Source of the DNA: an uncultured Candidatus Saccharibacteria bacterium
GTDB taxonomy: Bacteria > Patescibacteriota > Minisyncoccia > UBA6257 > WO2-44-18
Assembly: GCA_964360605.1 (NCBI GenBank)
Contig: CAYHXN010000001.1
Span: forward strand, 15,494-79,387
Direction of reading: 5' to 3'
DNA: 63,894 nt
Shown: in pieces, positions 9,193-54,745 of the stretch
Position numbering within the stretch: the stretch's first letter is position 1
Layout of the letters: each line of letters opens with the position of its first letter
Program-made: the position numbers and the translations under genes
The notes under the pieces: model-generated
What the model saw: only the letters and a program-made list of their open reading frames with translations
Told to the model about the DNA's origin: nothing
Database searches by the model: none

Positions 9193-9220
9193 TTCCTAAT
9201 TCCTAATTCCTAATTCCTAA
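9193..9220. repeat. Perfect tandem heptamer (TTCCTAA)x4, which is (TTAGGAA)x4 on the coding strand
   Basis: Read directly. It spans the neuA1 stop codon (9203..9205), encodes the C-terminus ...LGIRN*, and ends 6 nt upstream of the ATG of 8246..9187. Each unit carries an SD-like AGGAA. Confidence 0.9.
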
Positions 9221-19855: not shown

Positions 19856-19860
19856 GGCCG

Positions 19861-21681: not shown

Positions 21682-22350
21682 TTAAAGCATTCCGGCATCA
21701 CGCAAAAATTGCTCTTGAGTCTCCACGCTTTTCTTCTGGTAAATAATTTTTGGCATAAATTTAGGCGGAACAGTAACAATATGAACTCCCGCTTCGTAAA
21801 CGTCAAAAACATCCCGAGCCTCCCTAATACTTCCGGCAATAATTTCAGATTTTAGATTGCAGTCATCAAGCTCTTTTCGAGTTTTTTTTATTGTGGCCAA
21901 TCCGTCGGAACCCATGTCTATAATACGCCGATAAAGCAAGCTAACGTATTTCGCGCCCGCTTTTGCGGCCCAAAATGCTTGATGCCAATCCACGCAAGCG
22001 GTGCAATTTACCGTAATTCCTGAATCACTTAACTTGTGGACCACCCCTAAACGGTCCGTCCCATCCACGCCCAAAATCGGAATTTTGATTGCCAACCCGG
22101 AATAATTTAATACTCGGATAAAATAATCAGCCTGCCTTAACATTGCCCCCGGAGTATCGCCAAACACTTCCACGCTCAGAGAAATTGGCTCCTTGCTATA
22201 AGCTCGTATCGCTTCAATAATTTTTTTCCAAATGGGAATAGGATTTTTCTTTTTTACCAAAGAAGGGTTAGTGGTAATTCCATCTAAAATCCCGGTTTTT
22301 AACCATTTTTCTATTTCTCCAAGGTCTGCCGTATCTAGAAAGATTTTCAT
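21682..22350 (-). CDS. Transaldolase-family protein (TalC / fructose-6-phosphate aldolase type)
   Basis: MKIFLDTADLGEIEKWLKTGILDGITTNPSLV...IKIPI...ITVNCTAC...AKAGAKYVSLLYRRIID. The start at 22350 is preceded by GAGG. Confidence 0.85.
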   Translation of the reverse strand: MKIFLDTADLGEIEKWLKTGILDGITTNPSLVKKKNPIPIWKKIIEAIRAYSKEPISLSVEVFGDTPGAMLRQADYFIRVLNYSGLAIKIPILGVDGTDRLGVVHKLSDSGITVNCTACVDWHQAFWAAKAGAKYVSLLYRRIIDMGSDGLATIKKTRKELDDCNLKSEIIAGSIREARDVFDVYEAGVHIVTVPPKFMPKIIYQKKSVETQEQFLRDAGML

Positions 22351-22399
22351 CTTTACCTCAAAAGTTCTGTTATTAAAATAGCCGTAAAAAAAAGCGGCG

Positions 22400-23035
22400 T
22401 CAATGGCCGCTATTTTCAAATTCTTTGATTTTGTTTTTAAGGCAGAAAATAATTAAGTGCTGGATAACGACCTGAAAAGACTCCACGAGAGCGGTTTTTA
22501 GTTCCTTATTGGTAACAATGCGAATAGGCGCGTCCACCATCTCTAAAAGCGGGCCGCCGCCGGCTATCGCAATCGTTTGACCGCCGACATCTTTAATTTT
22601 TTGGATTCCCTTAAGCAAATTCTGAGACCACTTTCCACCTAAATCCGAACCCTCTCCGCCATTTACGCTCAATCCGATACCAACCCCGCCACCCTCATAG
22701 TAATTGTCCAACCAAGCAGTAAAGTAATCCTCTTTCGCCCTATCGTTTACGATCGCGGTACTGTGCGGGATATTATCCCACAAAGTTAGGGCATGTATTC
22801 CCCTCTGTCCAGGAACGTCATTAATGGTCTTTGCCAGATCACCGGCAAAATGGGAGGCGGTGGAAGCCGATCCGCCGTTGCCTAAAATATAAACTTTCCG
22901 TCTGTCCTCCCACGCCTCAAAAAGAATCTGGATTGCTTTTTCTATCTCCACCGCTTGCCCTTCTAGCTTTTTAGATATCTCGCTGGAATGCTTTAAGTAA
23001 TTTAAAATAAATTCCCGATCGTCGTTTTCTTTCAC
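22400..23035 (-). CDS. SIS-domain sugar-phosphate isomerase, GmhA-like (sedoheptulose-7-phosphate isomerase candidate)
   Basis: KVYILGNGGSASTASHFAGDL matches the GmhA/SIS motif. A GTG start is preceded by GGAG. Confidence 0.7.
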   Translation of the reverse strand: MKENDDREFILNYLKHSSEISKKLEGQAVEIEKAIQILFEAWEDRRKVYILGNGGSASTASHFAGDLAKTINDVPGQRGIHALTLWDNIPHSTAIVNDRAKEDYFTAWLDNYYEGGGVGIGLSVNGGEGSDLGGKWSQNLLKGIQKIKDVGGQTIAIAGGGPLLEMVDAPIRIVTNKELKTALVESFQVVIQHLIIFCLKNKIKEFENSGH

Positions 23036-25125: not shown

Positions 25126-25155
25126 AAAAAAAAATCCCGAGTTCAAGCTCGAGAT
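25126..25155 (-). terminator. Intrinsic terminator overlapping the HAD gene stop
   Basis: Minus-strand RNA reads AUCUCGAG-CUUGAA-CUCGGGAU (one G-U pair) followed by U9. Confidence 0.75.
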
Positions 25156-25853
25156 TGGGCAGATTCTTCGTTCAAATTTTTTATCAAAGCAGGGGTGTTA
25201 ATCTCATCCCAATTCATAAATACTCTATGCGCACCCGCTTCCACTAAGGCGTTCACCGTATCCGGCCGATTGTATATAGGCATACCGATAGTCAAACACC
25301 CAACAGTTACCGCTCCCAAAATACCACGCGGCGAGTCTTCAAAAACAAGCTGTTCCGTGGTGTTCACTCCGGCTCTTTCGGCAGTTTCATCCCAAACATC
25401 CGGAGATGGCTTCAATTGCTTAACATCATCTCGGAGAACAACTAAACGGGGATCAAAATACTTATCCAGCCCGGAACTCTCCATCAGCATCTTAGCGTAT
25501 TTTTCAGTGGTTAAACTCCCAACAGTCATTTTATAGTCGTTGCGCTTCAACCATTCTAAAACTTCAACTAATCCTGAACGGGCAACGATCTTAGACTTTT
25601 CCAAAAACTTTTCGTAATGGCTTTTATCCAACTCTAAAATTAACTTCCAATCAACCGGAGAGGGGGCTAGAGCCGCTATTTCTTTCGCGATGTCTTCATC
25701 CGGCCCGCCGATAAAATGGGGAATTTTCTGAAAACAATCCTCCATTGTTAGCTTCACACCGACAATGGAAGCGGCCGCGATGTGGGCGTTGTGATGAGCG
25801 GCTTCCACGTTGACCATTGTTCCTTCTAAATCAAAAGCCACCGCTTTTATCAT
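25143..25853 (-). CDS. HAD-superfamily hydrolase (beta-phosphoglucomutase/phosphatase-like, subfamily IA)
   Basis: AVAFDLEGTMV (DxD/E motif I), GSLTT and FEDSPRGILGA. Confidence 0.8.
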   Translation of the reverse strand: MIKAVAFDLEGTMVNVEAAHHNAHIAAASIVGVKLTMEDCFQKIPHFIGGPDEDIAKEIAALAPSPVDWKLILELDKSHYEKFLEKSKIVARSGLVEVLEWLKRNDYKMTVGSLTTEKYAKMLMESSGLDKYFDPRLVVLRDDVKQLKPSPDVWDETAERAGVNTTEQLVFEDSPRGILGAVTVGCLTIGMPIYNRPDTVNALVEAGAHRVFMNWDEINTPALIKNLNEESAQSRA

Positions 25854-28263: not shown

Positions 28264-28293
28264 AAAAAAACCCGCCCCCTACAATTGGGCGAG
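28264..28293 (-). terminator. Intrinsic terminator candidate overlapping the epimerase gene stop
   Basis: Minus-strand RNA reads CUCGCCC-(9-nt loop)-GGGCGGG (one G-U pair) followed by U7. Confidence 0.55.
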
Positions 28294-29187
28294 TTGTTCT
28301 TTAATCCACTGTTCAACGCTGATTTTCGGTTCCCATCCTAATATCTTTTTTGCCTTGCTAATATCCGCAAGCCAATCATTTTCTTCTTTTTGTCCAGGAA
28401 GGCGCTCTGTAGTTCCTCCTACCAGCTCGGCGATTTCAACAACGCTGTGATTTTTTCCGCTACCGATGTTTATTATTTCACCCTTACTAATTTTCTTGTT
28501 TTCTATCGCCAAAGCAGTTGCTTTTATCACATCATCCACATGAATAAAGTCCCGACGCTGTTTGCCGCTGCCAATAATTTGGATTGGCTTGCCTTCAATT
28601 TTCTGTCTTAAAAATCTTTCAATAATACAAGGCGGATCAGTCATACCGGCGAGCGCTCGGTCGGCCCCGAATACATTAAAATAACGCAATCGGACGGTTT
28701 CTATAAATTTTGCTCCTGCCATTTCTTTACATAAAACTTCTCCTAAATACTTAGTTTGCGCATAAGGATTCAATGGCCTTACTCTGGCGTTTTCTTTCCA
28801 GGGCAGTCGCGGATTATCTCCATACGCCTGCGCAGAAGCTGCGTACACTACTCTTTTAATGCCGCACTCTACCGCTGTCACAAGAACGTTCAAGGTGCCA
28901 CCAACATTGATTCTGTAGGCAATGCTTGGATTTTCGGCACATTTTTTCATTTTACTGTAAGCCGCCAGATGAAAAACACCGTCTGCGTCTCTAAAAGCAA
29001 TCCTCAAAGAATCAGTACTGGTAATACTTCCCAAAACAAGATCTATTCCCTTGTTTTTCAAACTATCGGACATCCAGGTCGGACAAAATTCATCAAGAAC
29101 TTTTACTTGATGGCCCTGCCCTTTTAAATATTCTGCTAATTTAGAGCCGATAAATCCTGCACCTCCAGTAACGACGAAATTACTCAC
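28279..29187 (-). CDS. NAD-dependent nucleotide-sugar epimerase (extended SDR)
   Basis: FVVTGGAGFIGSKLAEYL, YAQTKYLGE (YxxxK) and RYFNVFG. Confidence 0.85.
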   Translation of the reverse strand: MSNFVVTGGAGFIGSKLAEYLKGQGHQVKVLDEFCPTWMSDSLKNKGIDLVLGSITSTDSLRIAFRDADGVFHLAAYSKMKKCAENPSIAYRINVGGTLNVLVTAVECGIKRVVYAASAQAYGDNPRLPWKENARVRPLNPYAQTKYLGEVLCKEMAGAKFIETVRLRYFNVFGADRALAGMTDPPCIIERFLRQKIEGKPIQIIGSGKQRRDFIHVDDVIKATALAIENKKISKGEIINIGSGKNHSVVEIAELVGGTTERLPGQKEENDWLADISKAKKILGWEPKISVEQWIKEQLAQL

Positions 29188-29749
29188 TTAACTGACCTCC
29201 TTCAATTGCCAAGTGACCAAGAATCCCGGCTAAAGTCGCCAGGTCCTTTATACGGCCGTCAGCAATCATTTCCAAAACCTCTTTTTTGGATACCAATACC
29301 GCTTCTAATCCTTGAACCTCGTCACCTTTAACTCTATTTTCAACCGGAACACAATCCATAGCTAAAAAAATGTGGCATGGGTTATCGCATCGGTCAGTCA
29401 AGGGATAAAAATGGACCCCCAAAGATACAAGTTTGTTGGGCTTGTAGCCGATTTCTTCGTTCATTTCCCGTAATCCCGCGGCAATCCAACCTTCTCCGTA
29501 TTCCCTGCCCCCAGCTACTCCCTCAACGGACATTCCCGCGACGGGCCGGCATTGGCGAGTTAAAATAAATCTTCCATCCACAAGACGGGCGATTATCATT
29601 ATATAACCACCGCTTTTAGAAGTTATTCTTAAAAAATTTCTAATTTCCTTTCCGTTGTTAAAAAGAACATCTACTATTTCCGCTTTCACCCATTTGTCGT
29701 CATGCAAAATTTCTTGCACCTTTATAGTCCGATCGGTGGCAAACTCCAT
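29180..29749 (-). CDS. Nudix hydrolase, NudF/NudK-like (NDP-sugar pyrophosphatase type)
   Basis: Intact Nudix box GGREYGEGWIAAGLREMNEEIGY (Gx5Ex7REUxEExGU) in 189 aa. Paralogous to both halves of 31533..32660. Confidence 0.85.
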   Translation of the reverse strand: MEFATDRTIKVQEILHDDKWVKAEIVDVLFNNGKEIRNFLRITSKSGGYIMIIARLVDGRFILTRQCRPVAGMSVEGVAGGREYGEGWIAAGLREMNEEIGYKPNKLVSLGVHFYPLTDRCDNPCHIFLAMDCVPVENRVKGDEVQGLEAVLVSKKEVLEMIADGRIKDLATLAGILGHLAIEGGQLSE

Positions 29750-29805
29750 TCTTCACCACATCAAATAACTGCTAAAAAAATAACATGTTTTTTTTAAATT
29801 ATCAA

Positions 29806-29829
29806 TAAAAAGCCCGCCTAGGAGGCGGG
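29806..29829 (-). terminator. Intrinsic terminator overlapping the radical SAM gene stop
   Basis: Minus-strand RNA reads CCCGCCU-CCU-AGGCGGG followed by CUUUUUAUU. Confidence 0.7.
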
Positions 29830-31392
29830 TTCTGATTTATCTTCTTTCGGATCTTTCTTTAATGCGCCGGTACTCCATCTGTTGCCAATGTTACGCTGAA
29901 GTCTCTTTTCAACATAATTTCGAGGATTAACCGTTTCCCACAAATATTGTTTAAGCTCTAATAAGCGTTCGGGCGAAACAACTGTATTTTTCATCACTGG
30001 TTTGAACCAGTTCATAAAGTCCGGATCAAAGTCGGGAGTTAAATGCCCGTTAGCAATGGCGTAATCGTAAAGCTGGCTTCCAGGAAAAGGAATGGGACAA
30101 AAAAATGAACAGTGTTTTGCTCCCGCATCTACCATTCGTTTTCCATAAGCAGCACTATTTCGCATTTCCTCTTCGGTTTCGTCGGGAAAACCAATCATCA
30201 TATTCACCGAACACGTAATACCGACGTCAACGGCAATTCTAGCCATTTCAATAAGATCCATTGTCTCCAAATGAAGTTTGGATGTAGCATATTTATCCAG
30301 AATCCGCTGGCTGGCGGATTCTACTGGGAAAACAATATGGTCAAAGCCGCTGGCTTTTAAAATTTCCATATAATCACGGTCAGTTTCTAATTTGCCCGTT
30401 TTTTTATTGCGCACCAGGAAATGAACCAAGTTAACCCCGTTAACATCAACAATATGTAAATCCTCACCGCGCAGTTTTGTGAAAATCTGTTTAACACGAG
30501 ATTTCTTGGCCAGCAAACTATCATCTTCAAAATAGACTTTTACAACATTCAACTTTTTAAGAATCTTAATTTCTTCTAATACTCTCTCTACAGATTTGAG
30601 TCGGAGGTTCCCAATATCCTCAAGAAATTCGCGTTCTTTAGAAATATGGCAATAACTGCATTTAAATGGGCAACCGCGAGAGGTCATGATCGGAGCATAA
30701 ACGTATCTTCGATTAGTAAAACTATCGTCAAAATTACCGTGAGGTGAATTGATGGCAGCATATTTGTCCAGAGGTAATTTATGCCAAGCCGGAATCGGCA
30801 ACTCGTCCAAATTCATTTTTGTATCTCCCGGCGCGAGCGGAGTCTTAACAATCTTTCCATCTTTTACAAACATTATTCCACTCACCGTTTCCCATGGCGC
30901 TTTCTTTTCCCAAGCACGAACAATTTTCACAATTATTTCCTCGCCTTCGCTGTAACAAATTACATCAAGGCACCCGCTTGCAAAAAAACGGTCCGATAAA
31001 TTGCGGGCATTTACGCCGCCACTGATAACTAAAATATCTGGACTTACTTCTTTAGCCGCTTTCGCCACCTCCAAAGCCATTTTAGTTTGGGGAGTAAAAT
31101 TGGAATGAATCCCTACAACGTTATAGCCTCCCTTGGCGATTAGCTCTTTCATTTCTTCGTAATTCATTCCGATTCGAATCAGTCCGTTTTCCTGCTGAAC
31201 AACGCGATAAAAAGTTTGTTCCAAGGTTTGTTCTTTCGTTCCTACCGAGGCATCAACAACATCATTCTCAATTCCCGCTTTATCTAAAGCTGCAGCAAGA
31301 TACAATGGACCAAGCGATCCGTCCGGTCTCGGCATTTCCTGCGGATTCAACTGATTTGGTGGATAAATTAACAAAACTTTCGGTTGAGTCAT
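29818..31392 (-). CDS. Cobalamin-binding-domain radical SAM enzyme (class B, methyltransferase-like)
   Basis: An N-terminal B12-binding-like Rossmann region (VLLIYPP...VVGIHSNFTPQ...ILVISGGVNA) is followed by TSRGCPFKCSYCH (CxxxCxxC). 524 aa, with the AGGAGAAGA SD upstream. Confidence 0.85.
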   Translation of the reverse strand: MTQPKVLLIYPPNQLNPQEMPRPDGSLGPLYLAAALDKAGIENDVVDASVGTKEQTLEQTFYRVVQQENGLIRIGMNYEEMKELIAKGGYNVVGIHSNFTPQTKMALEVAKAAKEVSPDILVISGGVNARNLSDRFFASGCLDVICYSEGEEIIVKIVRAWEKKAPWETVSGIMFVKDGKIVKTPLAPGDTKMNLDELPIPAWHKLPLDKYAAINSPHGNFDDSFTNRRYVYAPIMTSRGCPFKCSYCHISKEREFLEDIGNLRLKSVERVLEEIKILKKLNVVKVYFEDDSLLAKKSRVKQIFTKLRGEDLHIVDVNGVNLVHFLVRNKKTGKLETDRDYMEILKASGFDHIVFPVESASQRILDKYATSKLHLETMDLIEMARIAVDVGITCSVNMMIGFPDETEEEMRNSAAYGKRMVDAGAKHCSFFCPIPFPGSQLYDYAIANGHLTPDFDPDFMNWFKPVMKNTVVSPERLLELKQYLWETVNPRNYVEKRLQRNIGNRWSTGALKKDPKEDKSEPAS

Positions 31393-31485
31393 TCTTCTCC
31401 TAACTATAAAAATGCTAACTGTATAATAACTTTAATTTTTAAAATTGTCTAATAATAGTTCTTCTTAATTATTAAAAAATTGGAA

Positions 31486-31514
31486 TTTAAAAATACCACG
31501 ATAATTCGTGGTAT
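31486..31514 (-). terminator. Hairpin terminator after the tandem-Nudix gene (U-tracts on both strands)
   Basis: AUACCACGA-(4-nt loop)-UCGUGGUAU, a 9-bp stem flanked by A-runs and T-runs. Confidence 0.7.
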
Positions 31515-31532
31515 TTATTTTTGTAACTATTC

Positions 31533-32660
31533 TTAGCGACTCAAACCAACGGCAAATAATGTGGCGGCAGTTGAAAGGTCCCGAATTTTTCCGGACTCAA
31601 TCATTTGCAAACTTTTTTCCCTGGAACAAATAAAATTGCCGATGCCTTGAACCTCGTCACCAAGCGGCTGGTCATCAGTTGTTTTGCAATCAAGTGCTAG
31701 AAATAAGTGGCAAGGGTTAAAATACATATCAGTCACCGGATGAAAAACACCCAGCGGAACCATCTGACCAGCAACAAGTTTTGCTTCTTCCGCCAGTTCG
31801 CGGGCTGCGGCATCATACCAACTCTCTCCTTCTTCACGACCTCCAGCAACCAGTTCTGTGCTTAAGCCATCAACTATCTTGCATTGTTTTGTGAAAACAA
31901 AACTTCCATCAGGTAAAACCGGCAAAACCGCGACATACCCGTCTCCCTTACCCGAACAAATAAAAGTATTCTCACATAACGTCTTTCCGTCATAAAACAC
32001 ATCCACTAAATCGGCCTGAATCCACTTATCATTATGGATATTCTTTTTGACAACTCGCCGGACAAGCGCGGTATTGTCACGTATATTCGCTAAACAACGA
32101 TCGAAGTCAGGTAATTGTAATTTTATCTTTTGAGTCCCAAGATAATAGAAAATGGCCGTAATCGTTGCCATGTCATTGACTTCGCCAACTCGAAGCATTT
32201 CTAAAACATCTTCATGAGGACGATACAGACCAACCTCCGTACTACGAGTCCTGCCTTCGCTATAGTCCCCAAAGGCCAGAAAGATCGCGCATCGATGATC
32301 GGCTCGTCCAGAAAGCGGAGTGAATTCTCCCACTTTAATAATTTTTCTAGATATGAAGCCAAGATGCCGACCCAATGCATTACTAACCTCTAAAACCCAA
32401 GATCTCCTAGAAACTTTATTAACCAAAAAAAGTTCCTTACTCGGACCAGAAACGGGATTAATTTTATTTTCCAATAAAATCCGGCCGTCTGGTAGAATTG
32501 GCAACACCGTGCCGTAACAACGTGGCTTTCTAGAAATACGCACAAAATTATTAATAGCTTTATCATTATTAAATTCTGCTCTTACCGTATCAGCTTTGAC
32601 TCCCCCGTCTTCATAAAGACACTTCTCTAGAATCACCCGACGGCTAGTCGCAATCTGCAA
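31533..32660 (-). CDS. Tandem Nudix-fold protein: degenerate N-terminal module plus intact C-terminal Nudix module
   Basis: The C-terminal half has GGREEGESWYDAAARELAEEAKL. The N-terminal half aligns to the same fold (MQIATSRRVILEKCLYEDGGVKADTV... against MEFATDRTIKVQEILHDDKWVKAEIV...), but its box region reads LVNKVSRRSWVLEVSNALGRHLGF and lacks the REx2EE glutamates. The TTG start is supported by the paralog alignment. Confidence 0.75.
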   Translation of the reverse strand: MQIATSRRVILEKCLYEDGGVKADTVRAEFNNDKAINNFVRISRKPRCYGTVLPILPDGRILLENKINPVSGPSKELFLVNKVSRRSWVLEVSNALGRHLGFISRKIIKVGEFTPLSGRADHRCAIFLAFGDYSEGRTRSTEVGLYRPHEDVLEMLRVGEVNDMATITAIFYYLGTQKIKLQLPDFDRCLANIRDNTALVRRVVKKNIHNDKWIQADLVDVFYDGKTLCENTFICSGKGDGYVAVLPVLPDGSFVFTKQCKIVDGLSTELVAGGREEGESWYDAAARELAEEAKLVAGQMVPLGVFHPVTDMYFNPCHLFLALDCKTTDDQPLGDEVQGIGNFICSREKSLQMIESGKIRDLSTAATLFAVGLSR

Positions 32661-32776: not shown

Positions 32777-33340
32777 TTACACAAAATCAATTTCACGAAA
32801 ATTGCCACGAACCAAATCTGGAAGATAACCTAAACCCTTAAGTAAGGTATTCAGCCCTCGTCCGTGGCCAACAAGTAAAATTAGTTCGTCGGGATATTGT
32901 CGAACATAACCCTGAACTGCGGAAATGTGACGCTTAAAAACTCCGTTCTCGTTTTCGCCTCCAAAATCGCTAAAGTCATAAGAAGTCATAATCCCTCGTT
33001 GATGATCCGTTCCCAAAACAAAATCACGCACCTTTGGATAAAGTTTTTCCGCTTCATCTCTCATCATTCCTTCCAAAATTCCGTGATTGCATTCTCGCAA
33101 CCGCGGGTCGGTAAAAAACGAAACCCCCATAATCTTTGAAATTGTCTCCGCGGTTTCTGACGCCCTATGTAGGTCAGAACTGATTATGCGATTGATTTTT
33201 GAATAAGCCAATTTCAATTTTTCGGCGATCTCTTTTGACTGCCTTCGGCCATTTTCGTTCAACAATGTATCGCTGTGCCCTTGAATTCTATGAATAACGT
33301 TCCAATCGGTTTCGCAGTGTCTTATAAGTATAAATTTCAT
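32777..33340 (-). CDS. Histidine phosphatase superfamily (phosphoglycerate-mutase-like) phosphatase
   Basis: MKFILIRHCETDWN...IQGHSD...SSDLHRASETA...GHG. The start was moved to 33340. The track's longer ORF would overlap the divergent gene at 33429. Confidence 0.8.
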   Translation of the reverse strand: MKFILIRHCETDWNVIHRIQGHSDTLLNENGRRQSKEIAEKLKLAYSKINRIISSDLHRASETAETISKIMGVSFFTDPRLRECNHGILEGMMRDEAEKLYPKVRDFVLGTDHQRGIMTSYDFSDFGGENENGVFKRHISAVQGYVRQYPDELILLVGHGRGLNTLLKGLGYLPDLVRGNFREIDFV

Positions 33341-33428
33341 AATACCTACAAAATAATAAGAGATTATGGCAATTTTGTAAATATTTTTTATTGTTGTTTT
33401 TTTATTATTTATAGTACCTTTTAAGGTA

Positions 33429-34007
33429 ATGGCTGATAAACCAAAAATTATAGCGATTGTCGGCATGGCTTACTCTGGTAAAAACACGTTAGCCAATCTT
33501 CTATCCAAGAAATTGGGCATTCTTCATGTAGACATAGATGATGTCAGAACGGCTATATTCGGACTGGAAGAGCACCCAAAACCTGATCCGACTTTGGTTG
33601 ATCTATCCCCGATAAGAAAATTAGATCAGCTACCGCGTAAGCTTAGCTATAAAGCTATTCTTTTTTTTGCTGAAAAGTTTTCGGAACTTGGAAAATCCGT
33701 CATCATCAGTGCTACTTTCAGTCAATTTGAAACTCGGGAAAAATTGCGAAGTATCGCTAAAACGAATGGTGCCGAATTAAAATTAATCAAATGCGAGTTT
33801 TTAAATGATACCAAGGAAGAAGTAGAAAAAAGAATAGCGAGTAGACAATTTGGAAAAAATTCACTTTCGTTAATAGTGAATTATGACCAATATCTTTGGC
33901 AAAAATCTATTGAGAAGCCTTTTCAAGAAAATCACTTTCTTATTGATACAAGCCATTCTCCAGAAATTTGTTTAAAAAAAGCGCTAGAATACATAAATTC
34001 AGACTAA
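33429..34007 (+). CDS. P-loop kinase-like protein (AAA_33/gluconate-kinase-like)
   Basis: IAIVGMAYSGKNTLANLL Walker-A-like motif in 192 aa. The substrate is unknown. Confidence 0.55.
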   Translation: MADKPKIIAIVGMAYSGKNTLANLLSKKLGILHVDIDDVRTAIFGLEEHPKPDPTLVDLSPIRKLDQLPRKLSYKAILFFAEKFSELGKSVIISATFSQFETREKLRSIAKTNGAELKLIKCEFLNDTKEEVEKRIASRQFGKNSLSLIVNYDQYLWQKSIEKPFQENHFLIDTSHSPEICLKKALEYINSD

Positions 34008-34018
34008 CAATTGATTGT

Positions 34019-34042
34019 AAAAAAAACCCGCTTTTGCGGGTT
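34019..34042. terminator. Bidirectional intrinsic terminator between convergent genes
   Basis: An A8 run, then AACCCGC-UUUU-GCGGGUU. On the minus strand the hairpin is followed by U8. On the plus strand it is followed by UUUAAG. Confidence 0.8.
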
Positions 34043-34869
34043 TAAGAATCTTTCAAATATTCGGCAGTTGTTTCTGAAAGCCATGGCGCGACGAAGTGGC
34101 GTTGCGTATATAAAGCCAAATTCTCGTATCCGCCCCAATGATTCAATGCTGGAGTATAAAGCCCGTATTGGAAACCGCGGTTGAAATACAAAGCTAGGGA
34201 ATAATCCGGGGATAAACCCTGATCGCTTGTAAATTTGCGGTTACCTAGAATAACCAGTTTTTCTATCAACGCCACAAGGTCTCCATTTTCAGCCGAATCA
34301 TTTTCGGTGAAAATGAAACATTGTCCGGCCCTAATTCCTCCAACCGCAACGCTTAAGTTATTTTTCTGTAAAATAACCAGATTGGGGTAATTTTTATAGG
34401 TTTGCCTTATTTCTTCCAAAAATTCCGGAGTTCCATCACCCTCTATTTCATAAATTACATGGTAATGAAGATGAGAAACGTTCTGGCCTCCAAAAGTTCC
34501 TATATGAACCGTAATAAAAAACGGTTTTGAAGAGCGTTCTTGAGCGGCTTTAGTGCCAATTTCTATCGCCTCTGTGATTTTTTCTGCGTCGCCTAAACTT
34601 CTTAACTTTTCTTTAGGCCAGCAAGTGTCCGGAATGACTAACCCATGAAATTCAAAAGGCGTATAAGCATTTTGAACGAGGCGCCAACGTCCGTTGAAAT
34701 AGCTTCCTAAAACAGTCTGCGGTTTTTTGCAAAACGGGCAGTTTTCCGAATCCACAACAATATCTTGCTGCCAAGGACGACTTAGTTTAATAGTAAGACG
34801 GCTGCCGCCGGCGATGCTCTTTAATCCTCCGGGCCAAACGTAAAAACGTGCCTTTGACTCATTTTCCAT
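34042..34869 (-). CDS. HIT-superfamily nucleotidyltransferase/phosphorylase (GalT / Ap4A-phosphorylase-like)
   Basis: CPFCKK near the N-terminus and the histidine triad GGQNVSHLHYHVI. 275 aa. Confidence 0.6.
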   Translation of the reverse strand: MENESKARFYVWPGGLKSIAGGSRLTIKLSRPWQQDIVVDSENCPFCKKPQTVLGSYFNGRWRLVQNAYTPFEFHGLVIPDTCWPKEKLRSLGDAEKITEAIEIGTKAAQERSSKPFFITVHIGTFGGQNVSHLHYHVIYEIEGDGTPEFLEEIRQTYKNYPNLVILQKNNLSVAVGGIRAGQCFIFTENDSAENGDLVALIEKLVILGNRKFTSDQGLSPDYSLALYFNRGFQYGLYTPALNHWGGYENLALYTQRHFVAPWLSETTAEYLKDS

Positions 34870-34916
34870 CTCCTATACTCCTTTCAAAGAACAATGCTAA
34901 GAAAATACCGCCTTTT

Positions 34917-35909
34917 TTAGCGTTCGTCAATAACTTGAGTTCCTTCGTCAACGAATTGGAATGGATAAACAGTGCCACCCGCCGCTGTTATACCTCTTTT
35001 AAAATTCTCTTGTTTTTTAGACGGAACATAAAAATAAACAAATCCGCCGGCACCAGCGCCAATAATTTTTGCCCCCGTCGCTCCCAACTGGTATCCAGTA
35101 TCAATAAATCTATCCAACTTTTCGTTGGTACAGCTTATATAACACTTCTTTTTTGCCGCTAATAAATTATTAATATTCCCCACGAAATCATCCACTCGTC
35201 CTTCCACTAAAAATCCGCGTAGTTGGTCGCCCAACTTTACAAACGAAGCGATGTCGGCAAAAATCGCCTCCGAAGTCTCAAAACGCTTATTCACTACGTT
35301 TAAAACTTCGCTTGCGGATCTCTTCATACCGCTAAAAACTAGAACTAGTTCGTTTTCCAATCTTTTCCGGGTGTTTTCAGAAAAATCAAGTTTATTCACG
35401 ACCACGCTCCCGTCTTTTTCAAAAACCAAATGAAGAATTCCGCCAAAAGCCGCCATATACTGGTCGTATTTACCGATTGGTGCCTTAAGTTTGTTGATTT
35501 CTAGATCAGCCGCTTCCTCGGCTAGATCACGCGGTGAACGAACCGTACCCTTAAAAGCATGGAGCGCGTTTAGTAAGCCCACAGTGAAAGCTCCCGACGA
35601 ACCCAAGCCAGAACCCGGCGGTATATCGGAAGTGGAAACAATATTAATGCCACCGTTAAAACCGTGGTCTGATAACGCCTGTCGAATAATGGAATTTTTT
35701 ACTTCTGCCGAGGAAGCCACATTTTCAATGCCTTCTGGATAGTTCAAAGTAATCCGATCATCATCACGCTGGGAAACTTTTACCGTCACAAATTTGTTTA
35801 TAGTGGCGCCGCACGCGGTACCGCCGTAGCGTTTCACATACGGCACAAGATCACTACCACCAGTCAAAGTCATTCTGAAGGGGGTTTTTGTTGTAACGCT
35901 TTTTCTCAT
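34917..35909 (-). CDS. GHMP-family sugar(-phosphate) kinase, HddA-like
   Basis: TPFRMTLTGGSDLVPYVKRYGGTACGATINKF and the GHMP motif PPGSGLGSSGAF. 330 aa, as in D-glycero-D-manno-heptose-7-phosphate and fucose kinases. Confidence 0.75.
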   Translation of the reverse strand: MRKSVTTKTPFRMTLTGGSDLVPYVKRYGGTACGATINKFVTVKVSQRDDDRITLNYPEGIENVASSAEVKNSIIRQALSDHGFNGGINIVSTSDIPPGSGLGSSGAFTVGLLNALHAFKGTVRSPRDLAEEAADLEINKLKAPIGKYDQYMAAFGGILHLVFEKDGSVVVNKLDFSENTRKRLENELVLVFSGMKRSASEVLNVVNKRFETSEAIFADIASFVKLGDQLRGFLVEGRVDDFVGNINNLLAAKKKCYISCTNEKLDRFIDTGYQLGATGAKIIGAGAGGFVYFYVPSKKQENFKRGITAAGGTVYPFQFVDEGTQVIDER

Positions 35910-36006
35910 AATTAACTATCTTAATTTAATTTTTAAAATTAGGTCTGTCAATTTTGACTTTTTTAAAAATTAGTTGTAAAATCTTATCGGACTTTTGAAA
36001 GGAATA

Positions 36007-36957
36007 ATGATGATGCTGAGTCAGGGTGGCAAAAAACTGGCAGTTGCTTTGGCGCACGTAGGAGTTAGGGCGAAAAGACATTGGGTTAATAGAGATTTAA
36101 CCGTAGGTCAAAGTTTCAATAATCGCCCCGAAGAAGCCATGGATTTTTTCACTACTTTAGATATCGAATTAGATTCTTTCATAGTGAATGAGATTAGAGC
36201 AGAGTTTTCCATAGATCGATTTCTCACCGAAGAAGGCGCTACCCTTGCTGAAAGAAATGCTGTGGGTGGTAAAAGAGCGGTGATTGATTCATTAGATGGC
36301 TCTTCTAATTTTGCCACCTATCGTCCGGATTTCGGTATCAGTATAGCAATAGAAAACAACGGCTCTCCAATACTGGCTGGTGTAATTACGCCAGCACGCG
36401 GAGAATTATTGTTAGCAGAAAAAGATCGTGGGACTCATTTGATTTCCTGGTATGAAAAAGGAATGGGGGAAGTTTTGGATATGATTGAACAAGAAACGAG
36501 CGTAAAAAAAGTGAGTTTTCAATCATTCGCACTGAAAAATAAAAAGCGATTAGCTTCTCCTCTCCAAACCAGCAGAGTTTATGTCCATACCGGAAAACGA
36601 CGTAATTTTGAACTTTCTCCGGACGACAAGTGGAATACAATTTATTCAAAATTAGCCAACCCGGCATGCAGTTTCTGTTGTTCCGTTGCTCTAGTGGAAG
36701 TAGCTTTGGGGAAATTAGACGGCGCGGCTATCGCTTATCAAAATCACTGGGATTATGCCGCGGGAAGATTACTAGTAGAAGAAGCGGGTGGGTGTTTTGA
36801 GGCTTGGGATAGAAGTTGGAACAAACAACTTACGGATAAAGACTTAGCTGAAGCCCACGCTACCAAAGACGAAAATAAAAATGAATGGCTCTGTCATATT
36901 CTTGCCGCAGGGACACCCGAACTTTTAGCCGCTCTTCGTAGTCATTTCGTTTCTTAG
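36007..36957 (+). CDS. Inositol-monophosphatase-family sugar phosphatase
   Basis: VIDSLDGSSNF and WDYAAGRLLVEEAGG motifs. ATG at 36007 after AAAGGA (the track starts at a TTG at 35995). Confidence 0.8.
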   Translation: MMMLSQGGKKLAVALAHVGVRAKRHWVNRDLTVGQSFNNRPEEAMDFFTTLDIELDSFIVNEIRAEFSIDRFLTEEGATLAERNAVGGKRAVIDSLDGSSNFATYRPDFGISIAIENNGSPILAGVITPARGELLLAEKDRGTHLISWYEKGMGEVLDMIEQETSVKKVSFQSFALKNKKRLASPLQTSRVYVHTGKRRNFELSPDDKWNTIYSKLANPACSFCCSVALVEVALGKLDGAAIAYQNHWDYAAGRLLVEEAGGCFEAWDRSWNKQLTDKDLAEAHATKDENKNEWLCHILAAGTPELLAALRSHFVS

Positions 36958-36965
36958 AATTTACG

Positions 36966-36991
36966 CCGCGCTATACAGCGCGGATTTTTTT
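36966..36991 (+). terminator. Intrinsic terminator after the IMPase-like gene
   Basis: CCGCGCU-AUAC-AGCGCGG followed by AUUUUUUUAU. Confidence 0.8.
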
Positions 36992-37011
36992 ATCTAAAAT
37001 AAACTTGAATT

Positions 37012-37839
37012 ATGAAAACGACAGTTAAAAGAGCGGTTTTATTGGTAGCGGGTAAAGGAACGAGGATTATGCCGCTTACTCTCCATCAGCCGAAAGGCAT
37101 GGTGGGTATAGTAGACCGGCCAATGATCCACTACATTATTGACGAACTGGCTTCCAACGGCATAAAGAAAATTTTATTGGTAACCTCCCCCAAACAACCG
37201 CAATTTAAAAAATACGCCGATTACTTACAAAAAGACCCCGAGTGGAAAACTTTGGGAGTTAAAATAAGTTTCGCGGTTCAGAAAAAACCCATAGGCAGCG
37301 CCGACGCGCTTTTAAAAGCTCGGAGGTTTTTGGGGCCAGAGCCGTTCTTGCTTTATTTTTGCGATGACTTATTGGATGATCAGACATCGCCGACAAAGAA
37401 TTTTTTGAATCTTTTTCAAAAGTTTCAACACCCGATTTTAATTTTAGAAAAGATTCCCAAGAACCTGATTGAAAAATACGGCGTAGTTAAAGCCAAAAAA
37501 ATAACGGGTGGGTTATATCAAATTTCCGACATAGTGGAAAAACCAAAAATTAAAGAAGCGCCGTCTAATATCGGGGCCATGGGACGTTATTTACTGACAC
37601 CGGAAATTTTTAAATATATATACAAAGCGCAAACGCTCATGAAAGACAAAAAAGAAATCGCCGTAGCAGACGCCTTAAAACTTTATTTTGCCGACGGCGG
37701 TAAGGCCTACGGCTGGATTTTTAAGGGAGAACACTTTGATGCCGGTTCTAAGATAGGAATTTTAAAAGCCCAAGTACATTTTGGCTTAAAACATCCGGAA
37801 TTTCGCCAACAATTTCTCCGCTTCCTAAAAAACTTTTAA
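37012..37839 (+). CDS. Sugar-1-phosphate nucleotidyltransferase, GalU-like
   Basis: AVLLVAGKGTRIMPLTLHQPKGMVGIVDRPMIHYIIDEL resembles the GalU/UGPase N-terminus (AAGLGTRFLPATKxxPKEML). 275 aa. Confidence 0.8.
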   Translation: MKTTVKRAVLLVAGKGTRIMPLTLHQPKGMVGIVDRPMIHYIIDELASNGIKKILLVTSPKQPQFKKYADYLQKDPEWKTLGVKISFAVQKKPIGSADALLKARRFLGPEPFLLYFCDDLLDDQTSPTKNFLNLFQKFQHPILILEKIPKNLIEKYGVVKAKKITGGLYQISDIVEKPKIKEAPSNIGAMGRYLLTPEIFKYIYKAQTLMKDKKEIAVADALKLYFADGGKAYGWIFKGEHFDAGSKIGILKAQVHFGLKHPEFRQQFLRFLKNF

Positions 37840-38679: not shown

Positions 38680-40542
38680 CTATTTCTTAATTCTAAAAAT
38701 TTCCACATCGCCAGAATGGTATATCAATTCTAATGACGGATTCGATTTTAAATCAATGCCGGTAAAATCTTTCTCCCAAGGTCCATAATATACATACTCC
38801 GCCGCTAAATCTTTCCAAGCGATATCTAACGTCCGATAACGCTTTATCAACTCTCGTATTTTTTCATCAATAATTTCTCGGCGCTCCGGGTCGCCGGTAT
38901 CAAGAAAATACAGTTGGTAAACATAAACCCTGGTATCGCGAAGATTGCTTAAAGCGTACGGCTGGTCACAATTAGCACGGCAAACTAATCCCTTGCCGCT
39001 CCGAAAGCGTTTTTCCAATACCTCTTCGGAAACACCAAAAAGCTTGTTAGCGGTCAAATACCGCTCTTCCATTTCAAAATTAGAAATCGGGGTAATGCCT
39101 CCCCAGGGAAGAAATGGCCGGCTGGAAGTAAAGGCAGTTAGATAAATTGAAGTCAGCAGCGATGGTGATATCACGCGCGATTCCCCTAGTTCTTTCTCCA
39201 TCCACTGCCAAGATCGCAAAGCGTCCTCGGGAAGCATGTAAGAACTGGAGATTTCTTTCGGCGGATTGATAAACGCCAGAGCGTTAACTATTTTTTTAGA
39301 AACAGATAACAATATCAATACAACTAAACCCGCCGCGAAGAATTTTTTATACTTTGGCGCGCGCTCCAACCATCGCGTAATCCAAACGTAAAACAAATCA
39401 AAAATAGCGATAAAAATCAGCGGATTAATACCGCGCGGCCAGTGATCGGAGTGCGGTACAAAACCTAAAACTATTTGAATATTCCAAACCAATACCGCGG
39501 CTCCCAAAAAAGCCCAATGAATAACCGCTCGTTTTCTTGTTTCGGAATTTTTCCAAAAAGTCAGATAAATTAAAACCGCTAAAACAAGGTAAACAAGATA
39601 GTGCGGCCAAACCTCAAGCCGGAAAGCGGAACCGATTTCTAAGCCTAACCGATTAAGATAGTCTGTTCCCGTTGGCAACGCTTTAATCCGAAAATAATTA
39701 ACAAAATAAGGAACACTAACCAAAATTATTGTCCCCACTAAGACGAAATAATTCTTGAATCGTTCTGGTTCGCGACGATACCAAATTAACGTTGCTAAAA
39801 ATAATAATCCCAGTACACCTATCCAATACACCCAAATATGGAAATAGGTATAAAACAATAGGCCGGCAAAAATTCCTGCTACCAGCGCTATGTTGCGGGA
39901 TGGACGAAGCCAAAACTTTAAAAACAAAGCGATAGCCGGCAAATAAATAAGGTGAGTCAGTATGGGATGATCCACGCGGGAAAAAAACAACCGCGGCAAT
40001 GTTGTTTTTACAAACGGGAAAAAATTTTTAATAACTATTTTGGCAAAATCTCCTATCCCCCAAAAGGCCTCGGTAGCTACCAAGGAAATGGGGGTTAAAA
40101 TCCCCACGAACGCGAAAAATGCCGACCAAAACCGATTTCCCTTAAATAAAACACTTCCGATCCACCAAAAGAAAGTGAAAAGGATAGCGGGAAGAATAAA
40201 GCTGGCCAAAAGATAAGCATTGTTAAGATCCATTCCGGCCACTCGGATGAATAAAGAATAGATTATCGGCGGAAGTGGCGGATAAATATTGGGTAGACTG
40301 TAATCAAAAAAAAGGTCGCTAGGTGGAATATGGCCTTCCGCCGCTTCTCGGGCAAATTGGAAGTAGGAGTCGCCGCCATCATGAAGCTCGGTAAATTGGG
40401 AAAGGACGAAGGTGCGTCCATCGGTATTAACCGCTCGTTTAATCAAAAGTTGCGGAGCTACATAAAGAATACCGATTAAAAAGGAACAGCTAGTTACTAG
40501 AATGACGGTACGCCAATTAATGTTTCCAAAAAATCGGCTCAT
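38680..40542 (-). CDS. Large polytopic membrane protein, paralog family B (GT-C-like glycosyltransferase candidate)
   Basis: 620 aa with REAAEGHIPPSDLFFD, FFPFVKT, SRVDHPIL, FYTYFHIWVYW, VWNIQIVLGFVP and the C-terminal YVYYGPWEKDF...IFRIKK. Its start overlaps the GT2 stop by 4 nt. Confidence 0.55.
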   Translation of the reverse strand: MSRFFGNINWRTVILVTSCSFLIGILYVAPQLLIKRAVNTDGRTFVLSQFTELHDGGDSYFQFAREAAEGHIPPSDLFFDYSLPNIYPPLPPIIYSLFIRVAGMDLNNAYLLASFILPAILFTFFWWIGSVLFKGNRFWSAFFAFVGILTPISLVATEAFWGIGDFAKIVIKNFFPFVKTTLPRLFFSRVDHPILTHLIYLPAIALFLKFWLRPSRNIALVAGIFAGLLFYTYFHIWVYWIGVLGLLFLATLIWYRREPERFKNYFVLVGTIILVSVPYFVNYFRIKALPTGTDYLNRLGLEIGSAFRLEVWPHYLVYLVLAVLIYLTFWKNSETRKRAVIHWAFLGAAVLVWNIQIVLGFVPHSDHWPRGINPLIFIAIFDLFYVWITRWLERAPKYKKFFAAGLVVLILLSVSKKIVNALAFINPPKEISSSYMLPEDALRSWQWMEKELGESRVISPSLLTSIYLTAFTSSRPFLPWGGITPISNFEMEERYLTANKLFGVSEEVLEKRFRSGKGLVCRANCDQPYALSNLRDTRVYVYQLYFLDTGDPERREIIDEKIRELIKRYRTLDIAWKDLAAEYVYYGPWEKDFTGIDLKSNPSLELIYHSGDVEIFRIKK

Positions 40543-41459
40543 CTCTCAATAATTTCTCTGATAGTATAAGGACGCTCTTCTTTTGATTCGTAATAAATTC
40601 TCCATAATATTTCTGTCAAAATCCCAATTATAAAAAGGAATAGGCCGCCAACGGTAAACATAGCTACAACAATCAGCAAAGATGTTCCGGCACTAATTGG
40701 TAGACCGAAACCTATTGAAGCTAGAAGCCCGACTACTGCCAACGCGGCTATTCCCCAAAATAAAAATCCTAGAGCGCTAAAAAAAACCATAGGGCGCATA
40801 TTCGGATGCAAAAAACGAACTACAAAAAGATCCGCTATCGCTTTGACGCCAGACATCCAAAGATGCGTAGACACACCGGATTTTCTTTCATGATGAGTAA
40901 CCTCTACTTCCGCTACTTTGGCGCCACGATAGAAAACAGAAACTGCCAAAAAAACATGCTGTATGCCATACATGTTTATACCATCTAAGAATTTTTTCTT
41001 ATAGGCCTTTAGAGCGCAGGCGTGATCGTGAAGATTCAATCCGCTGACCGTACGTGTTAACCAATTAGCAAGACGGGAGTGAATTCTCCGGGCAAGATTA
41101 TCGTGACGATCCTTTCTCCATCCAGCCACTACATCGTAACCCTCATCCATTTTCGCTAAAAGCTTCGGAATGTCTCTGGGGTCATTTTGCAAATCTCCAT
41201 CCATAATAATCACAATGTCTCCCTTGGCGGTTTTAATACCCGCATCCAAAGTTAAAGTCTGTCCAAATTTCCTTGTCAAAGTAATAATTTTAATCGGCGA
41301 AAGAGTTTTTAGAATTGCCGGGGTTTCGTCGATTGAACCGCTATCCACAACAATAATTTCATAAGGCACGCCCAACTTCTCTAACGTTTCTTTATTTAAA
41401 CGGTGAAGCTCTCTAATGTTGCCAGCTTCATTGTAAACCGGAATAATAACGGAAATCAT
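40539..41459 (-). CDS. Polyprenyl-phosphate glycosyltransferase (GT2 with two C-terminal TM helices; GtrB/CsbB/ArnC/DPM1-like)
   Basis: ISVIIPVYNEAGNI, IIVVDSGSIDET, IIMDGDLQNDP and C-terminal helices (MVFFSALGFLFWGIAALAVVGLL... and LLIVVAMFTVGGLFLFIIGIL). Confidence 0.88.
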   Translation of the reverse strand: MISVIIPVYNEAGNIRELHRLNKETLEKLGVPYEIIVVDSGSIDETPAILKTLSPIKIITLTRKFGQTLTLDAGIKTAKGDIVIIMDGDLQNDPRDIPKLLAKMDEGYDVVAGWRKDRHDNLARRIHSRLANWLTRTVSGLNLHDHACALKAYKKKFLDGINMYGIQHVFLAVSVFYRGAKVAEVEVTHHERKSGVSTHLWMSGVKAIADLFVVRFLHPNMRPMVFFSALGFLFWGIAALAVVGLLASIGFGLPISAGTSLLIVVAMFTVGGLFLFIIGILTEILWRIYYESKEERPYTIREIIER

Positions 41460-54738: not shown

Positions 54739-54745
54739 ATTTTTC

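Follow-up and report, generated by a model that had tools for sequence, protein, structure and literature searches.

This report concerns three adjacent genes within a 63,894-nucleotide (nt) stretch of DNA from an uncultured Candidatus Saccharibacteria bacterium (assembly GCA_964360605.1, contig CAYHXN010000001.1, positions 15,494 to 79,387 of the forward strand; the whole stretch is here denoted the window). The window represents a large island of genes for cell-envelope glycans in a groundwater bacterium of the Patescibacteria, or candidate phyla radiation (CPR). A gene encoding a radical S-adenosylmethionine (SAM) protein with a B12-binding domain (here denoted rSAM) is located between a gene encoding a single Nudix module (denoted nudS) and a gene encoding two Nudix modules in tandem (denoted nudT). 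An original prediction, made from the DNA sequence, had proposed that the three act together as a system modifying nucleotide sugars. The features of the locus are the following.

29180..29749, minus strand: nudS, single-module Nudix protein of 189 amino acids (aa), intact Nudix box, of the ADP-ribose / nucleoside diphosphate sugar (NDP-sugar) pyrophosphatase type
29818..31392, minus strand: rSAM, radical SAM protein with B12-binding domain, 524 aa, CxxxCxxC at C241/C245/C248
31533..32660, minus strand: nudT, tandem Nudix protein, 375 aa, TTG start, N-terminus aligning with the family N-terminus
32091..32660, minus strand: N module of nudT (aa 1-190), Nudix fold kept, Nudix box degenerate
31533..32090, minus strand: C module of nudT (aa 191-375), catalytic Nudix box and GDEVQG loop kept
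31491..31516, minus strand: intrinsic terminator after nudT, 11-bp stem and T-run, fold z-score -5.3
29813..29829, minus strand: intrinsic terminator that overlaps the stop codon of rSAM; stem of 7 bp, 6 of them GC, followed by CTTTTTATT, fold z-score -3.1
31393..31532, minus strand: AT-rich spacer upstream of rSAM, 20.0% GC, promoter-like site at 31451-31423 (10/12 matches)
29750..29817, minus strand: AT-rich spacer upstream of nudS, 26.5% GC, promoter-like site at 29805-29777 (9/12 matches, with TG)
28279..29187, minus strand: short-chain dehydrogenase/reductase (SDR) family NDP-sugar epimerase/dehydratase overlapping nudS; this Nudix-epimerase junction is kept in the closest relatives

The three open reading frames (ORFs) were recovered with the positions, lengths and strand originally assigned to them, and the Pfam profiles that the original prediction had named were all matched. 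rSAM matched PF04055 (E 1e-18, 68.6 bits against a gathering cutoff of 29.5) and, at residues 27-156, PF02310, the N-terminal B12-binding Rossmann domain (E 1.6e-9, 38.0 bits against 32.1). PF00293 was matched by nudS (E 2.3e-9) and, in nudT, was confined to residues 243-339. The motif CPFKCSYC, noticed at the outset in rSAM, occupies residues 241-248, and a family alignment of 12 members shows no variation at its three cysteines. By its architecture, rSAM is a class B radical SAM protein with predicted cobalamin binding.

The hairpins with a U-tract described after rSAM and after nudT were both found, and the two spacers upstream of nudS and rSAM are AT-rich as described, the GC content of the whole window being 41.5%. 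Both spacers are among the longest gaps of a tightly packed gene array. A promoter-like site lies upstream of each of the three genes, yet the total number of such sites, 6 against 7.9 expected in shuffled sequence, makes them a positional hint only. The end of nudS, with its stop codon, shares 8 nt with the start of the downstream epimerase gene, and there is no such overlap with rSAM; nudS is apparently translationally coupled to the epimerase and not to rSAM. In the window, rSAM, nudS and nudT are set apart by terminators and by promoter-like sites of their own.

The radical SAM family and its gene neighbourhood

An NCBI protein, labelled as from a 'Patescibacteria group bacterium' metagenome-assembled genome, matches rSAM with 100% identity. 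More than 1000 homologs were detected at E <= 1e-10, the top 120 of which are 500-545 aa long with an identity of 54% or more; when a single genome was scanned for each species, 80 loci were obtained. Orthologs (at least 49% identity) are found in many Patescibacteria, in Pace-, Woese- and Nanoarchaeota, and in Pelagibacteraceae, Nitrospirae, Deltaproteobacteria, Elusimicrobiota and others. We also observed a distant branch (37-39% identity) in single-cell genomes of Pelagibacteraceae (L050, L052-L054 and L058), with different and mostly unrecognised gene contexts, which may be a sister family with another substrate.

Comparison with the curated NCBIfam models placed rSAM far below every cutoff: Sden_1168 (142 bits against a cutoff of 575), HpnJ (99 against 578), BchE (98 against 481) and PhpK (79 against 600). 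These nearest curated relatives are methylase-type, and Sden_1168, the best of them, was matched over nearly the full length. The original prediction would have been at odds with membership of rSAM in a family of known non-sugar function; no curated family was reached. A family profile searched against solved structures gave remote matches only, to OxsB (7e-11), CysS (2e-9) and TokK (5e-9), and also to AprD4 and TsrM. SD1168, whose physiological substrate is unknown, clusters with the carbon methylases Fom3, MoeK5 and GenK and with HpnJ; most characterised members of this cluster are carbon methylases and some of them, GenK and MoeK5, act on sugars (PMC9204698). rSAM shares with the Fom3/MoeK5/HpnJ/GenK/SD1168 cluster the N-terminal B12-binding Rossmann domain and the CxxxCxxC core. 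Fom3, MoeK5 and GenK methylate unactivated carbons, GenK and MoeK5 those of sugars and Fom3 that of a nucleotide-linked substrate, whereas rSAM falls below every curated cutoff and stands in a heptose-type cassette for NDP-sugars and polyprenyl-phosphate-linked sugars in CPR bacteria, DPANN archaea and SAR11. Our literature search found no B12-type radical SAM protein described in the context of heptose or of CPR glycans. A Campylobacter jejuni HS:19 paper was set aside as a precedent, the radical SAM genes there being unrelated. A role in phosphonate metabolism or P-methylation, raised by the Sden_1168 and PhpK matches, was also rejected: the 50 window ORFs scanned with Pfam hold no PEP mutase or other phosphonate gene, and the scores are far below cutoff.

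We searched the proteins of the window against the 38 orthologous rSAM loci with at least 14 kb of sequence. An ArnC-like family 2 glycosyltransferase (GT2) was present at 34 loci, an FSA/TalC aldolase and a GHMP kinase at 32 each, a SIS isomerase at 28 and a Nudix gene at 6, always as a single gene; the tandem gene was present at none. Unbiased clustering of the ORFs at 57 loci returned rSAM at 56, GT2 at 37, a nucleotidyltransferase (NTP_transferase) at 37, the transaldolase-type aldolase (TAL) at 36, the GHMP kinase at 34, SIS at 32 and a GmhB-like HAD phosphatase at 30, with GFO and DAO oxidoreductases, a DegT aminotransferase, GtrA-like small membrane proteins and a polytopic membrane protein of ~600 aa in subsets of the loci. 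The commonest immediate neighbours of rSAM, recorded at 56 loci, are a sugar-1-phosphate nucleotidyltransferase upstream (14 on the same strand, 4 divergent) and an ArnC-like polyprenyl-phosphate GT2 downstream (12). The modal gene order is GtrA-like protein, NTP_transferase, rSAM, GT2, GFO/DAO, HAD, GHMP kinase. These neighbours, together with the failure to reach any curated non-sugar family, support the proposal that rSAM belongs to sugar metabolism, and its role very probably lies in nucleotide-sugar metabolism.

When the cluster representatives were compared with NCBIfam, the best match was in every case a heptose enzyme (GmhA, HddA, GmhB and HddC/Man1P-GTase); the GT2 is ArnC-like at 162 bits, and a subset of the loci has matches to RfaE domains I and II and to GT9 heptosyltransferases. 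rSAM tracks heptose genes over GDP-type and ADP-type routes alike. The cassette appears to be a divergent heptose-like pathway, all of these matches falling below equivalog level. Its members in the window are the following.

34917..35909, minus strand: HddA-like GHMP sugar kinase; 32/38 loci, directly upstream of rSAM in the closest relatives
40539..41459, minus strand: ArnC/PgfS/AglJ-like GT2, polyprenyl-phosphate sugar synthase; 34/38 loci, the most consistent partner of rSAM
38680..40542, minus strand: polytopic membrane protein, 620 aa, no Pfam match; recurs beside GT2, putative extracytoplasmic glycosyltransferase
22400..23035, minus strand: GmhA-like SIS isomerase; 28/38 loci
21682..22419, minus strand: FSA/TalC-type transaldolase/aldolase; 32/38 loci
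37012..37839, plus strand: GalU-like sugar-1-phosphate nucleotidyltransferase; its NTP_transferase cluster is found at 37/57 loci

The co-occurrence of the trio on which the original prediction relied was not found, because a Nudix gene is present at only 6 of the 38 loci and the tandem gene in no other genome. Moreover, rSAM cannot require a Nudix protein, because more than 80% of its orthologs have none nearby. Where a Nudix gene does occur, its position is that of a cassette member. Loci L056 (9280-18065) and L049 (9285-19029) both read nucleotidyltransferase (NT)-rSAM-GT2-GFO/DAO-GHMP-HAD-Nudix-SIS-TAL, and locus L090 (2772-9947) reads NT-GT2-GFO/DAO-GHMP-HAD-Nudix-SIS-TAL, the same order with no rSAM anywhere in 16.6 kb. 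L091 carries GHMP-HAD-Nudix, and in L024 the Nudix gene stands in front of the nucleotidyltransferase. The Nudix subfamily follows the cassette and not rSAM, and is an optional accessory. The operon variants with rSAM (L056, L049) and without it (L090) offer a natural comparison for the contribution of rSAM.

The order rSAM-Nudix-epimerase is kept in six genomes, the window and five others (L001/L022, L004, L084, L085 and L089). The four closest relatives of the window carry, in this order, GT2, a membrane protein of ~615 aa, a methyltransferase, the GHMP kinase, rSAM, a Nudix gene (190 aa) and the epimerase; compared with them, the window has an insertion between the GHMP kinase and rSAM.

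Two further patterns were noticed at these loci. A GmhB-like HAD near the cassette is absent in the window, L004, L022, L084, L085 and L089 and present in L024, L049, L056, L090 and L091; phosphatases of other kinds in the window are a HAD_2 protein at 25143-25853, an inositol monophosphatase (IMPase) family protein and a His_Phos_1 protein. The loci are too few for this pattern to be interpreted. We considered the Nudix protein as a stand-in for the missing GmhB phosphatase and rejected it, the pattern being only one of three loci against three and Nudix chemistry being unlike that of a monoester phosphatase. In addition, several related loci carry other radical SAM genes: a second paralog of the family in L024 (18496-19995), a 575-aa B12-type protein in L002 (1015-2742), and in L084 a 692-aa B12-type protein and a radical SAM-SPASM protein (1-1347 and 1483-2769). 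Glycan islands of this kind may often make use of radical chemistry.

Nudix modules and the tandem protein

BLASTP comparison of the three Nudix modules demonstrated, as predicted, that they are paralogs far beyond chance: nudS and the nudT C module share 42% identity (E 4e-44), nudS and the N module 32% (E 5e-28), and the N and C modules 25% (E 1e-15). Taking GX5EX7REUXEEXGU as the definition of the Nudix box, the box of nudS (GGREYGEGWIAAGLREMNEEIG) is intact and matches in full. That of the C module (GGREEGESWYDAAARELAEEAKL) keeps the catalytic R, E and EE but has K in place of the last conserved G, so that the description of both boxes as textbook holds for nudS and needs correction for the C module. 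The box of the N module (VNKVSRRSWVLEVSNALGRHLGF) is degenerate, having lost R, E, EE and both G positions, in agreement with the earlier remark that its REx2EE glutamates are gone. Similarly, the segment GDEVQG...GKIRDL, first ascribed to all three modules, is present in nudS and the C module but not in the N module, where STEVG with a 4-residue deletion replaces GDEVQG and GEVNDM replaces GKIRDL.

Conservation is distributed differently along the two halves of nudT. An N-terminal three-stranded beta subdomain can be aligned in all three modules and is the best conserved region of the N module, 43% identical to nudS against 28% for the C module; in the Nudix box the N module is 9% identical to nudS and the C module 52%. 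Eroded boxes (R to E; first E of EE to A) were also seen in single-copy orthologs, in L049 (17110-17691), L056 (16105-16677) and protein P0136; loss of catalytic residues may be recurrent in the cassette-associated Nudix subfamily, beyond the tandem protein.

The N module was modelled alone with a family alignment, and AlphaFold2 (AF2) returned a predicted local distance difference test score (pLDDT) of 90.1 and a predicted TM score (pTM) of 0.82. The model consists of a three-stranded N-terminal sheet (strands 7-17, 21-30 and 35-44) and a Nudix core. Foldseek matched it with probability 1.00 and TM 0.70-0.77 to 5c7q, 8zr8, 9jax, 1g0s and 3o61, its matches being the Bdellovibrio NDP-sugar hydrolase Bd3179, a B. 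methanolicus Nudix protein, the ADP-ribose pyrophosphatases (ADPRases) of E. coli and K. pneumoniae and the GDP-mannose hydrolase YffH. The module that lost its box takes a Nudix fold, without which the original prediction would have fallen.

The nearest solved sequences to these Nudix proteins are ADP-ribose pyrophosphatases, NudF, NUDT5 and NudE. The NCBIfam scores stay below equivalog level: nudS scored 42.5 for NudE (cutoff 169) and 15.8 for YffH/AdpP (cutoff 79.6), and nudT 22.7 for NudE and 21.9 for NudF (cutoff 248). Like E. coli NudF, NudK/YffH, Bd3179, NudE and NUDT5, which are the closest sequence or fold matches, the window proteins have an N-terminal beta subdomain, a Nudix core and a proline at G22N+15 (P116 in nudS, where G22N is G101; both nudT modules and most aligned family members share it). 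They differ from this group in having GDEVQG and G-x-I-K/R-D-L motifs of their own and in scoring below the cutoffs.

An exhaustive HMMER search of 1.84 billion representative proteins, used in place of word-indexed homolog searches (which gave 9 proteins with nudT and 6 with nudS), found no second full-length match to nudT. The good matches are single-module proteins of ~190 aa that align to the C module, with P0147 as the sole exception. This 378-aa protein, ~38% identical to the nudT C module, is an independent tandem of two ADPRase-type Nudix modules, both with intact boxes, and indicates that such tandem fusions do arise. The block with nudT is known only from contigs of one population (groundwater sample series Hain_H51), and no nudT is present in the four closest relatives, in which the rSAM proteins are 69-72% identical to that of the window. 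The inserted genes next to nudT are the following.

32777..34869, mixed strands: lineage-specific insertion which, with nudT, parts the GHMP kinase from rSAM; HIT-like protein, AAA_33 kinase and His_Phos_1 phosphatase
34042-34869, minus strand: HIT-like protein, 275 aa, with CPFC and HLHYHV motifs; Pfam HIT at only E 1.6e-3, no NCBIfam match
33429-34007, plus strand: AAA_33 P-loop kinase (Pfam)
32777-33466, minus strand: His_Phos_1 phosphatase, 229 aa as listed, Pfam match from residue 46

The His_Phos_1 ORF overlaps the start of the divergent kinase by 38 nt, and the public call of the same gene in L087 is 187 aa long; its true start is probably Met43 (MKFILIRHCETDW). Altogether, the genes at 32777-37839 that are extra relative to the four closest relatives are the four-gene block, a plus-strand IMPase-family phosphatase and the GalU-like nucleotidyltransferase, and they look like a small module for handling nucleotides and phosphate, which is again known only from contigs of that groundwater population.

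Members of the NDP-sugar hydrolase/ADPRase subfamily form homodimers in which the N-terminal domains, which bind the nucleoside, are swapped. Both subunits contribute to every active site, the other subunit providing 46% of its buried ligand surface (PMC4629899). Because active sites in this subfamily are composites of two swapped subunits, we read nudT as a fused dimer with one live site; it differs from the domain-swapped pyrophosphatases in that its two modules are fused and one has no catalytic box. The complementary retention seen in nudT, with the beta subdomain best kept in the N module and the box in the C module, fits a pseudo-dimer. The data suggest that nudT is a lineage-specific duplicate in which a domain-swapped homodimer was turned into a single-chain pseudo-dimer. 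The N module, keeping the fold and the nucleoside-binding beta subdomain, would complete the single remaining composite site, and catalysis would come from the C module alone. If so, nudT would be a small, clean example of the change from an obligate homodimer with composite sites to a single-chain pair of enzyme and pseudo-enzyme.

The same data could describe a recent duplicate in decay, its N module a functionless relic and the whole protein perhaps dispensable: nudT is a singleton in public data, it sits inside an inserted block, and both its modules are long-branched relative to the family. We regard decay as unlikely. The 375-codon ORF is intact and has its own promoter-like site (10/12) and a strong terminator, the N module still takes a confident family-like fold while the C module keeps all catalytic residues, and the divergence is patterned, with the box lost and the beta subdomain kept, and not uniform.

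Possible roles of the three genes

We consider it probable that rSAM has a conserved tailoring role in a heptose-type sugar-nucleotide cassette, with nudS as an optional accessory and nudT as a fused pseudo-dimer. For the identity of the sugar, the reaction of rSAM, the substrates of the Nudix proteins and the intramolecular pseudo-dimer, this is the scheme that we infer. The TAL/FSA aldolase and the GmhA-like isomerase would form a heptose phosphate, which the HddA-like GHMP kinase, a phosphatase and the nucleotidyltransferase would convert to NDP-heptose. rSAM would then modify the heptose by radical chemistry, C-methylation of an unactivated carbon being the likeliest form; a nucleotide- or polyprenyl-phosphate-linked heptose is suggested as its substrate because the gene usually lies between the nucleotidyltransferase and the polyprenyl-phosphate GT2. 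GT2 would load the sugar onto polyprenyl phosphate, and the large polytopic membrane protein would transfer it outside the membrane. nudS would hydrolyse surplus or off-pathway NDP-heptose to the nucleoside monophosphate and sugar-1-phosphate; judged by sequence, it is most likely such a hydrolase, of the ADP-ribose / NDP-sugar pyrophosphatase type.

The Nudix genes of the window resemble ordinary NDP-sugar/ADP-ribose pyrophosphatases in an accessory role, comparable to that of Gmm/WcaH (NudD). In the colanic-acid cluster this Nudix GDP-mannose mannosyl hydrolase is thought to tune the NDP-sugar pool. The likeness is that of a Nudix hydrolase inside a nucleotide-sugar and envelope glycan cluster; Gmm/WcaH differs in that it belongs to another Nudix subfamily, has no swapped N-terminal domain and cleaves at sugar C1.

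The cassette as a whole was compared with two kinds of pathway. The GDP- and ADP-glycero-manno-heptose pathways (GmhA, HddA, GmhB, HddC; HldE/RfaE; GT9) supply the best curated matches of its genes, and the cassette differs from them by adding a dedicated TAL/FSA, GFO and DAO oxidoreductases, an ArnC-like GT2 and rSAM. The octose pathway of lincomycin runs through the LmbR transaldolase, LmbN isomerase, LmbP kinase, LmbK phosphatase and LmbO guanylyltransferase, followed by tailoring by LmbM/L/Z/S (PMC4351081). Here the likeness is by enzyme class only (transaldolase, isomerase, kinase, phosphatase, nucleotidyltransferase, epimerase, dehydrogenases, which are GFO-type in the cassette, and aminotransferase), and the Lmb pathway differs in having no radical SAM enzyme.

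Several observations weigh against this scheme or parts of it. The scores for heptose enzymes are below the equivalog cutoffs (GmhA 54-57 against 209, HddA 110-134 against 600, GmhB 93 against 178, HddC 113 against 300, RfaE-I 169 against 345 and RfaE-II 168 against 181.5). A dedicated TAL/FSA is also a hallmark of the lincomycin octose route, so the sugar could be an octose or another higher sugar; RfaE-like and GT9-like genes beside rSAM in some loci favour a heptose. The best solved-structure match of rSAM, OxsB, is a ring-contracting enzyme and not a methylase, and because of this methylation is only a prior-weighted guess. CPR bacteria are not known to make cobalamin, and B12 use by rSAM is itself only predicted. 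For the Nudix proteins, an Asp-X-Lys on helix alpha3 has been proposed as a mark of preference for NDP-sugars over ADP-ribose (PMC4629899), and this motif (G22N+65) is not strictly present: nudS has D164-G-R166, the nudT C module S-G-K and the orthologs S-G-x/R-G-E. The full-length AF2 model of nudT has a pTM of 0.50 and an N half with pLDDT 30-60, the homologs all aligning to the C module and leaving the N half without coverage. Finally, the rSAM-Nudix-epimerase order kept in six genomes leaves room for a functional link between rSAM and nudS specific to this sub-clade.

That link could take the form of a true biosynthetic step, in which nudS strips the nucleotide after rSAM has acted, as FomD does, leaving a modified sugar-1-phosphate that is re-activated or used directly. 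The substrate methylated by Fom3 is cytidylylated and is afterwards hydrolysed by FomD (PMC8158854), and OxsB works with the phosphohydrolase OxsA, an HD-domain protein (PMC9204698). Both pairs resemble the window genes in that a cobalamin-type radical SAM enzyme with a nucleotide-linked substrate has a phosphoanhydride hydrolase close by. In both, however, the hydrolase is not a Nudix protein (FomD is a DUF402 protein), and the pairing of rSAM with Nudix occurs at only 6/38 loci, with Nudix found also without rSAM. Such a step would be served by the several nucleotidyltransferases of the window (one GalU-like, two CTP_transf_3), and it gains from the conserved gene order in the window and five related genomes and from the missing GmhB-like HAD in the sub-clade as well as from the Fom3/FomD precedent. 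Yet the Nudix gene changes position between loci (after HAD, before the nucleotidyltransferase or after rSAM) and persists in L090 without rSAM, GT2 needs an NDP-sugar donor, whose hydrolysis would undo the activation, and the eroded boxes in L049, L056 and P0136 would be odd in an essential enzyme. A biosynthetic nudS is unlikely on these grounds.

The substrate of rSAM might instead be a lipid carrier or another envelope component, or its chemistry might be ring contraction, epimerisation or dehydration. B12-type radical SAM enzymes such as HpnP and HpnR methylate lipids (PMC9204698), the gene adjoins a membrane GT2, and ring-contracting OxsB, together with HpnJ and BchE among the nearest curated families, points away from sugar methylation. 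We give this little credence: the gene is found mostly between the nucleotidyltransferase and GT2 and tracks heptose genes over both route types, and the related cluster consists, among its characterised members, mostly of carbon methylases, some of which act on sugars (GenK and MoeK5).

The three-gene system of the original prediction, in which the dead N module of nudT presents a nucleotide-sugar to rSAM while the live modules proofread or recycle, is very unlikely: the genes adjoin physically, the dead module keeps a confident Nudix fold with the nucleoside-binding subdomain, and OxsB/OxsA (PMC9204698) and Fom3 followed by FomD (PMC8158854) are precedents for a B12-type radical SAM enzyme with a nucleotide hydrolase, but the tandem gene occurs in one population only, within an insertion that the closest relatives lack, Nudix genes are rare at rSAM loci and persist without rSAM in L090, and rSAM, nudS and nudT each carry a terminator or promoter-like site of their own. 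The triad is not conserved as a functional unit, and there is no need to assume that the dead module presents a substrate, because nudT is read more simply as a fused dimer in which one box is dead.

Returning to the heptose-type cassette, no new three-part system emerges from the locus, and a more promising subject is the B12-type radical SAM family, large and uncharacterised, that is found in glycosylation cassettes of Patescibacteria, DPANN archaea and Pelagibacteraceae. rSAM is a defined enzyme with a predicted substrate, the NDP-heptose expected from its neighbours, and bears on the envelope glycans of ultra-small, mostly uncultured organisms. It is possible, and we suggest it only tentatively, that these strongly conserved proteins (55-80% identity across bacteria and archaea) are an undescribed B12-type family performing a new radical step on a carrier-linked heptose, either C-methylation or skeletal rearrangement. 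If true, envelopes of CPR bacteria, DPANN archaea and some SAR11 would contain a hitherto unknown sugar, branched or chain-extended or else rearranged, and cobalamin would be needed for envelope glycosylation in organisms unable to make B12. nudT would, if the pseudo-dimer is real, be the first single-chain, half-inactivated, domain-swapped NDP-sugar pyrophosphatase dimer.

The surrounding glycan island

The 50 window ORFs scanned with Pfam are all in, or compatible with, envelope-glycan biosynthesis, and Rfam and tRNA scans of the window found no tRNA and no Rfam family. The gene classes present include SDR epimerases/dehydratases, an NDP-sugar dehydrogenase, GFO/IDH/MocA oxidoreductases, four CDP-glycerol-type phosphotransferases and several methyltransferases. 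Other features recognised in the window are the following.

3079-4200 and 51328-52389: two NeuB-type nonulosonic acid synthases
9203-9943 and 45175-45894: two CMP-sugar synthetases
9924-11105: NeuC-like 2-epimerase
11157-12470: TylC3-type SAM-dependent NDP-hexose C-methyltransferase
14050-15036: Gmd
52405-54762: YfhO-like membrane protein

The sugar repertoire of the island is unusually rich for a CPR genome. The stretch 18329-20265 encodes a CDP-glycerol-type phosphotransferase and, after it, an AMP-binding enzyme and a 4'-phosphopantetheinyl transferase; the same trio is syntenic in L085. This arrangement is reminiscent of the carrier-protein-dependent decoration of a teichoic-acid-like polymer.

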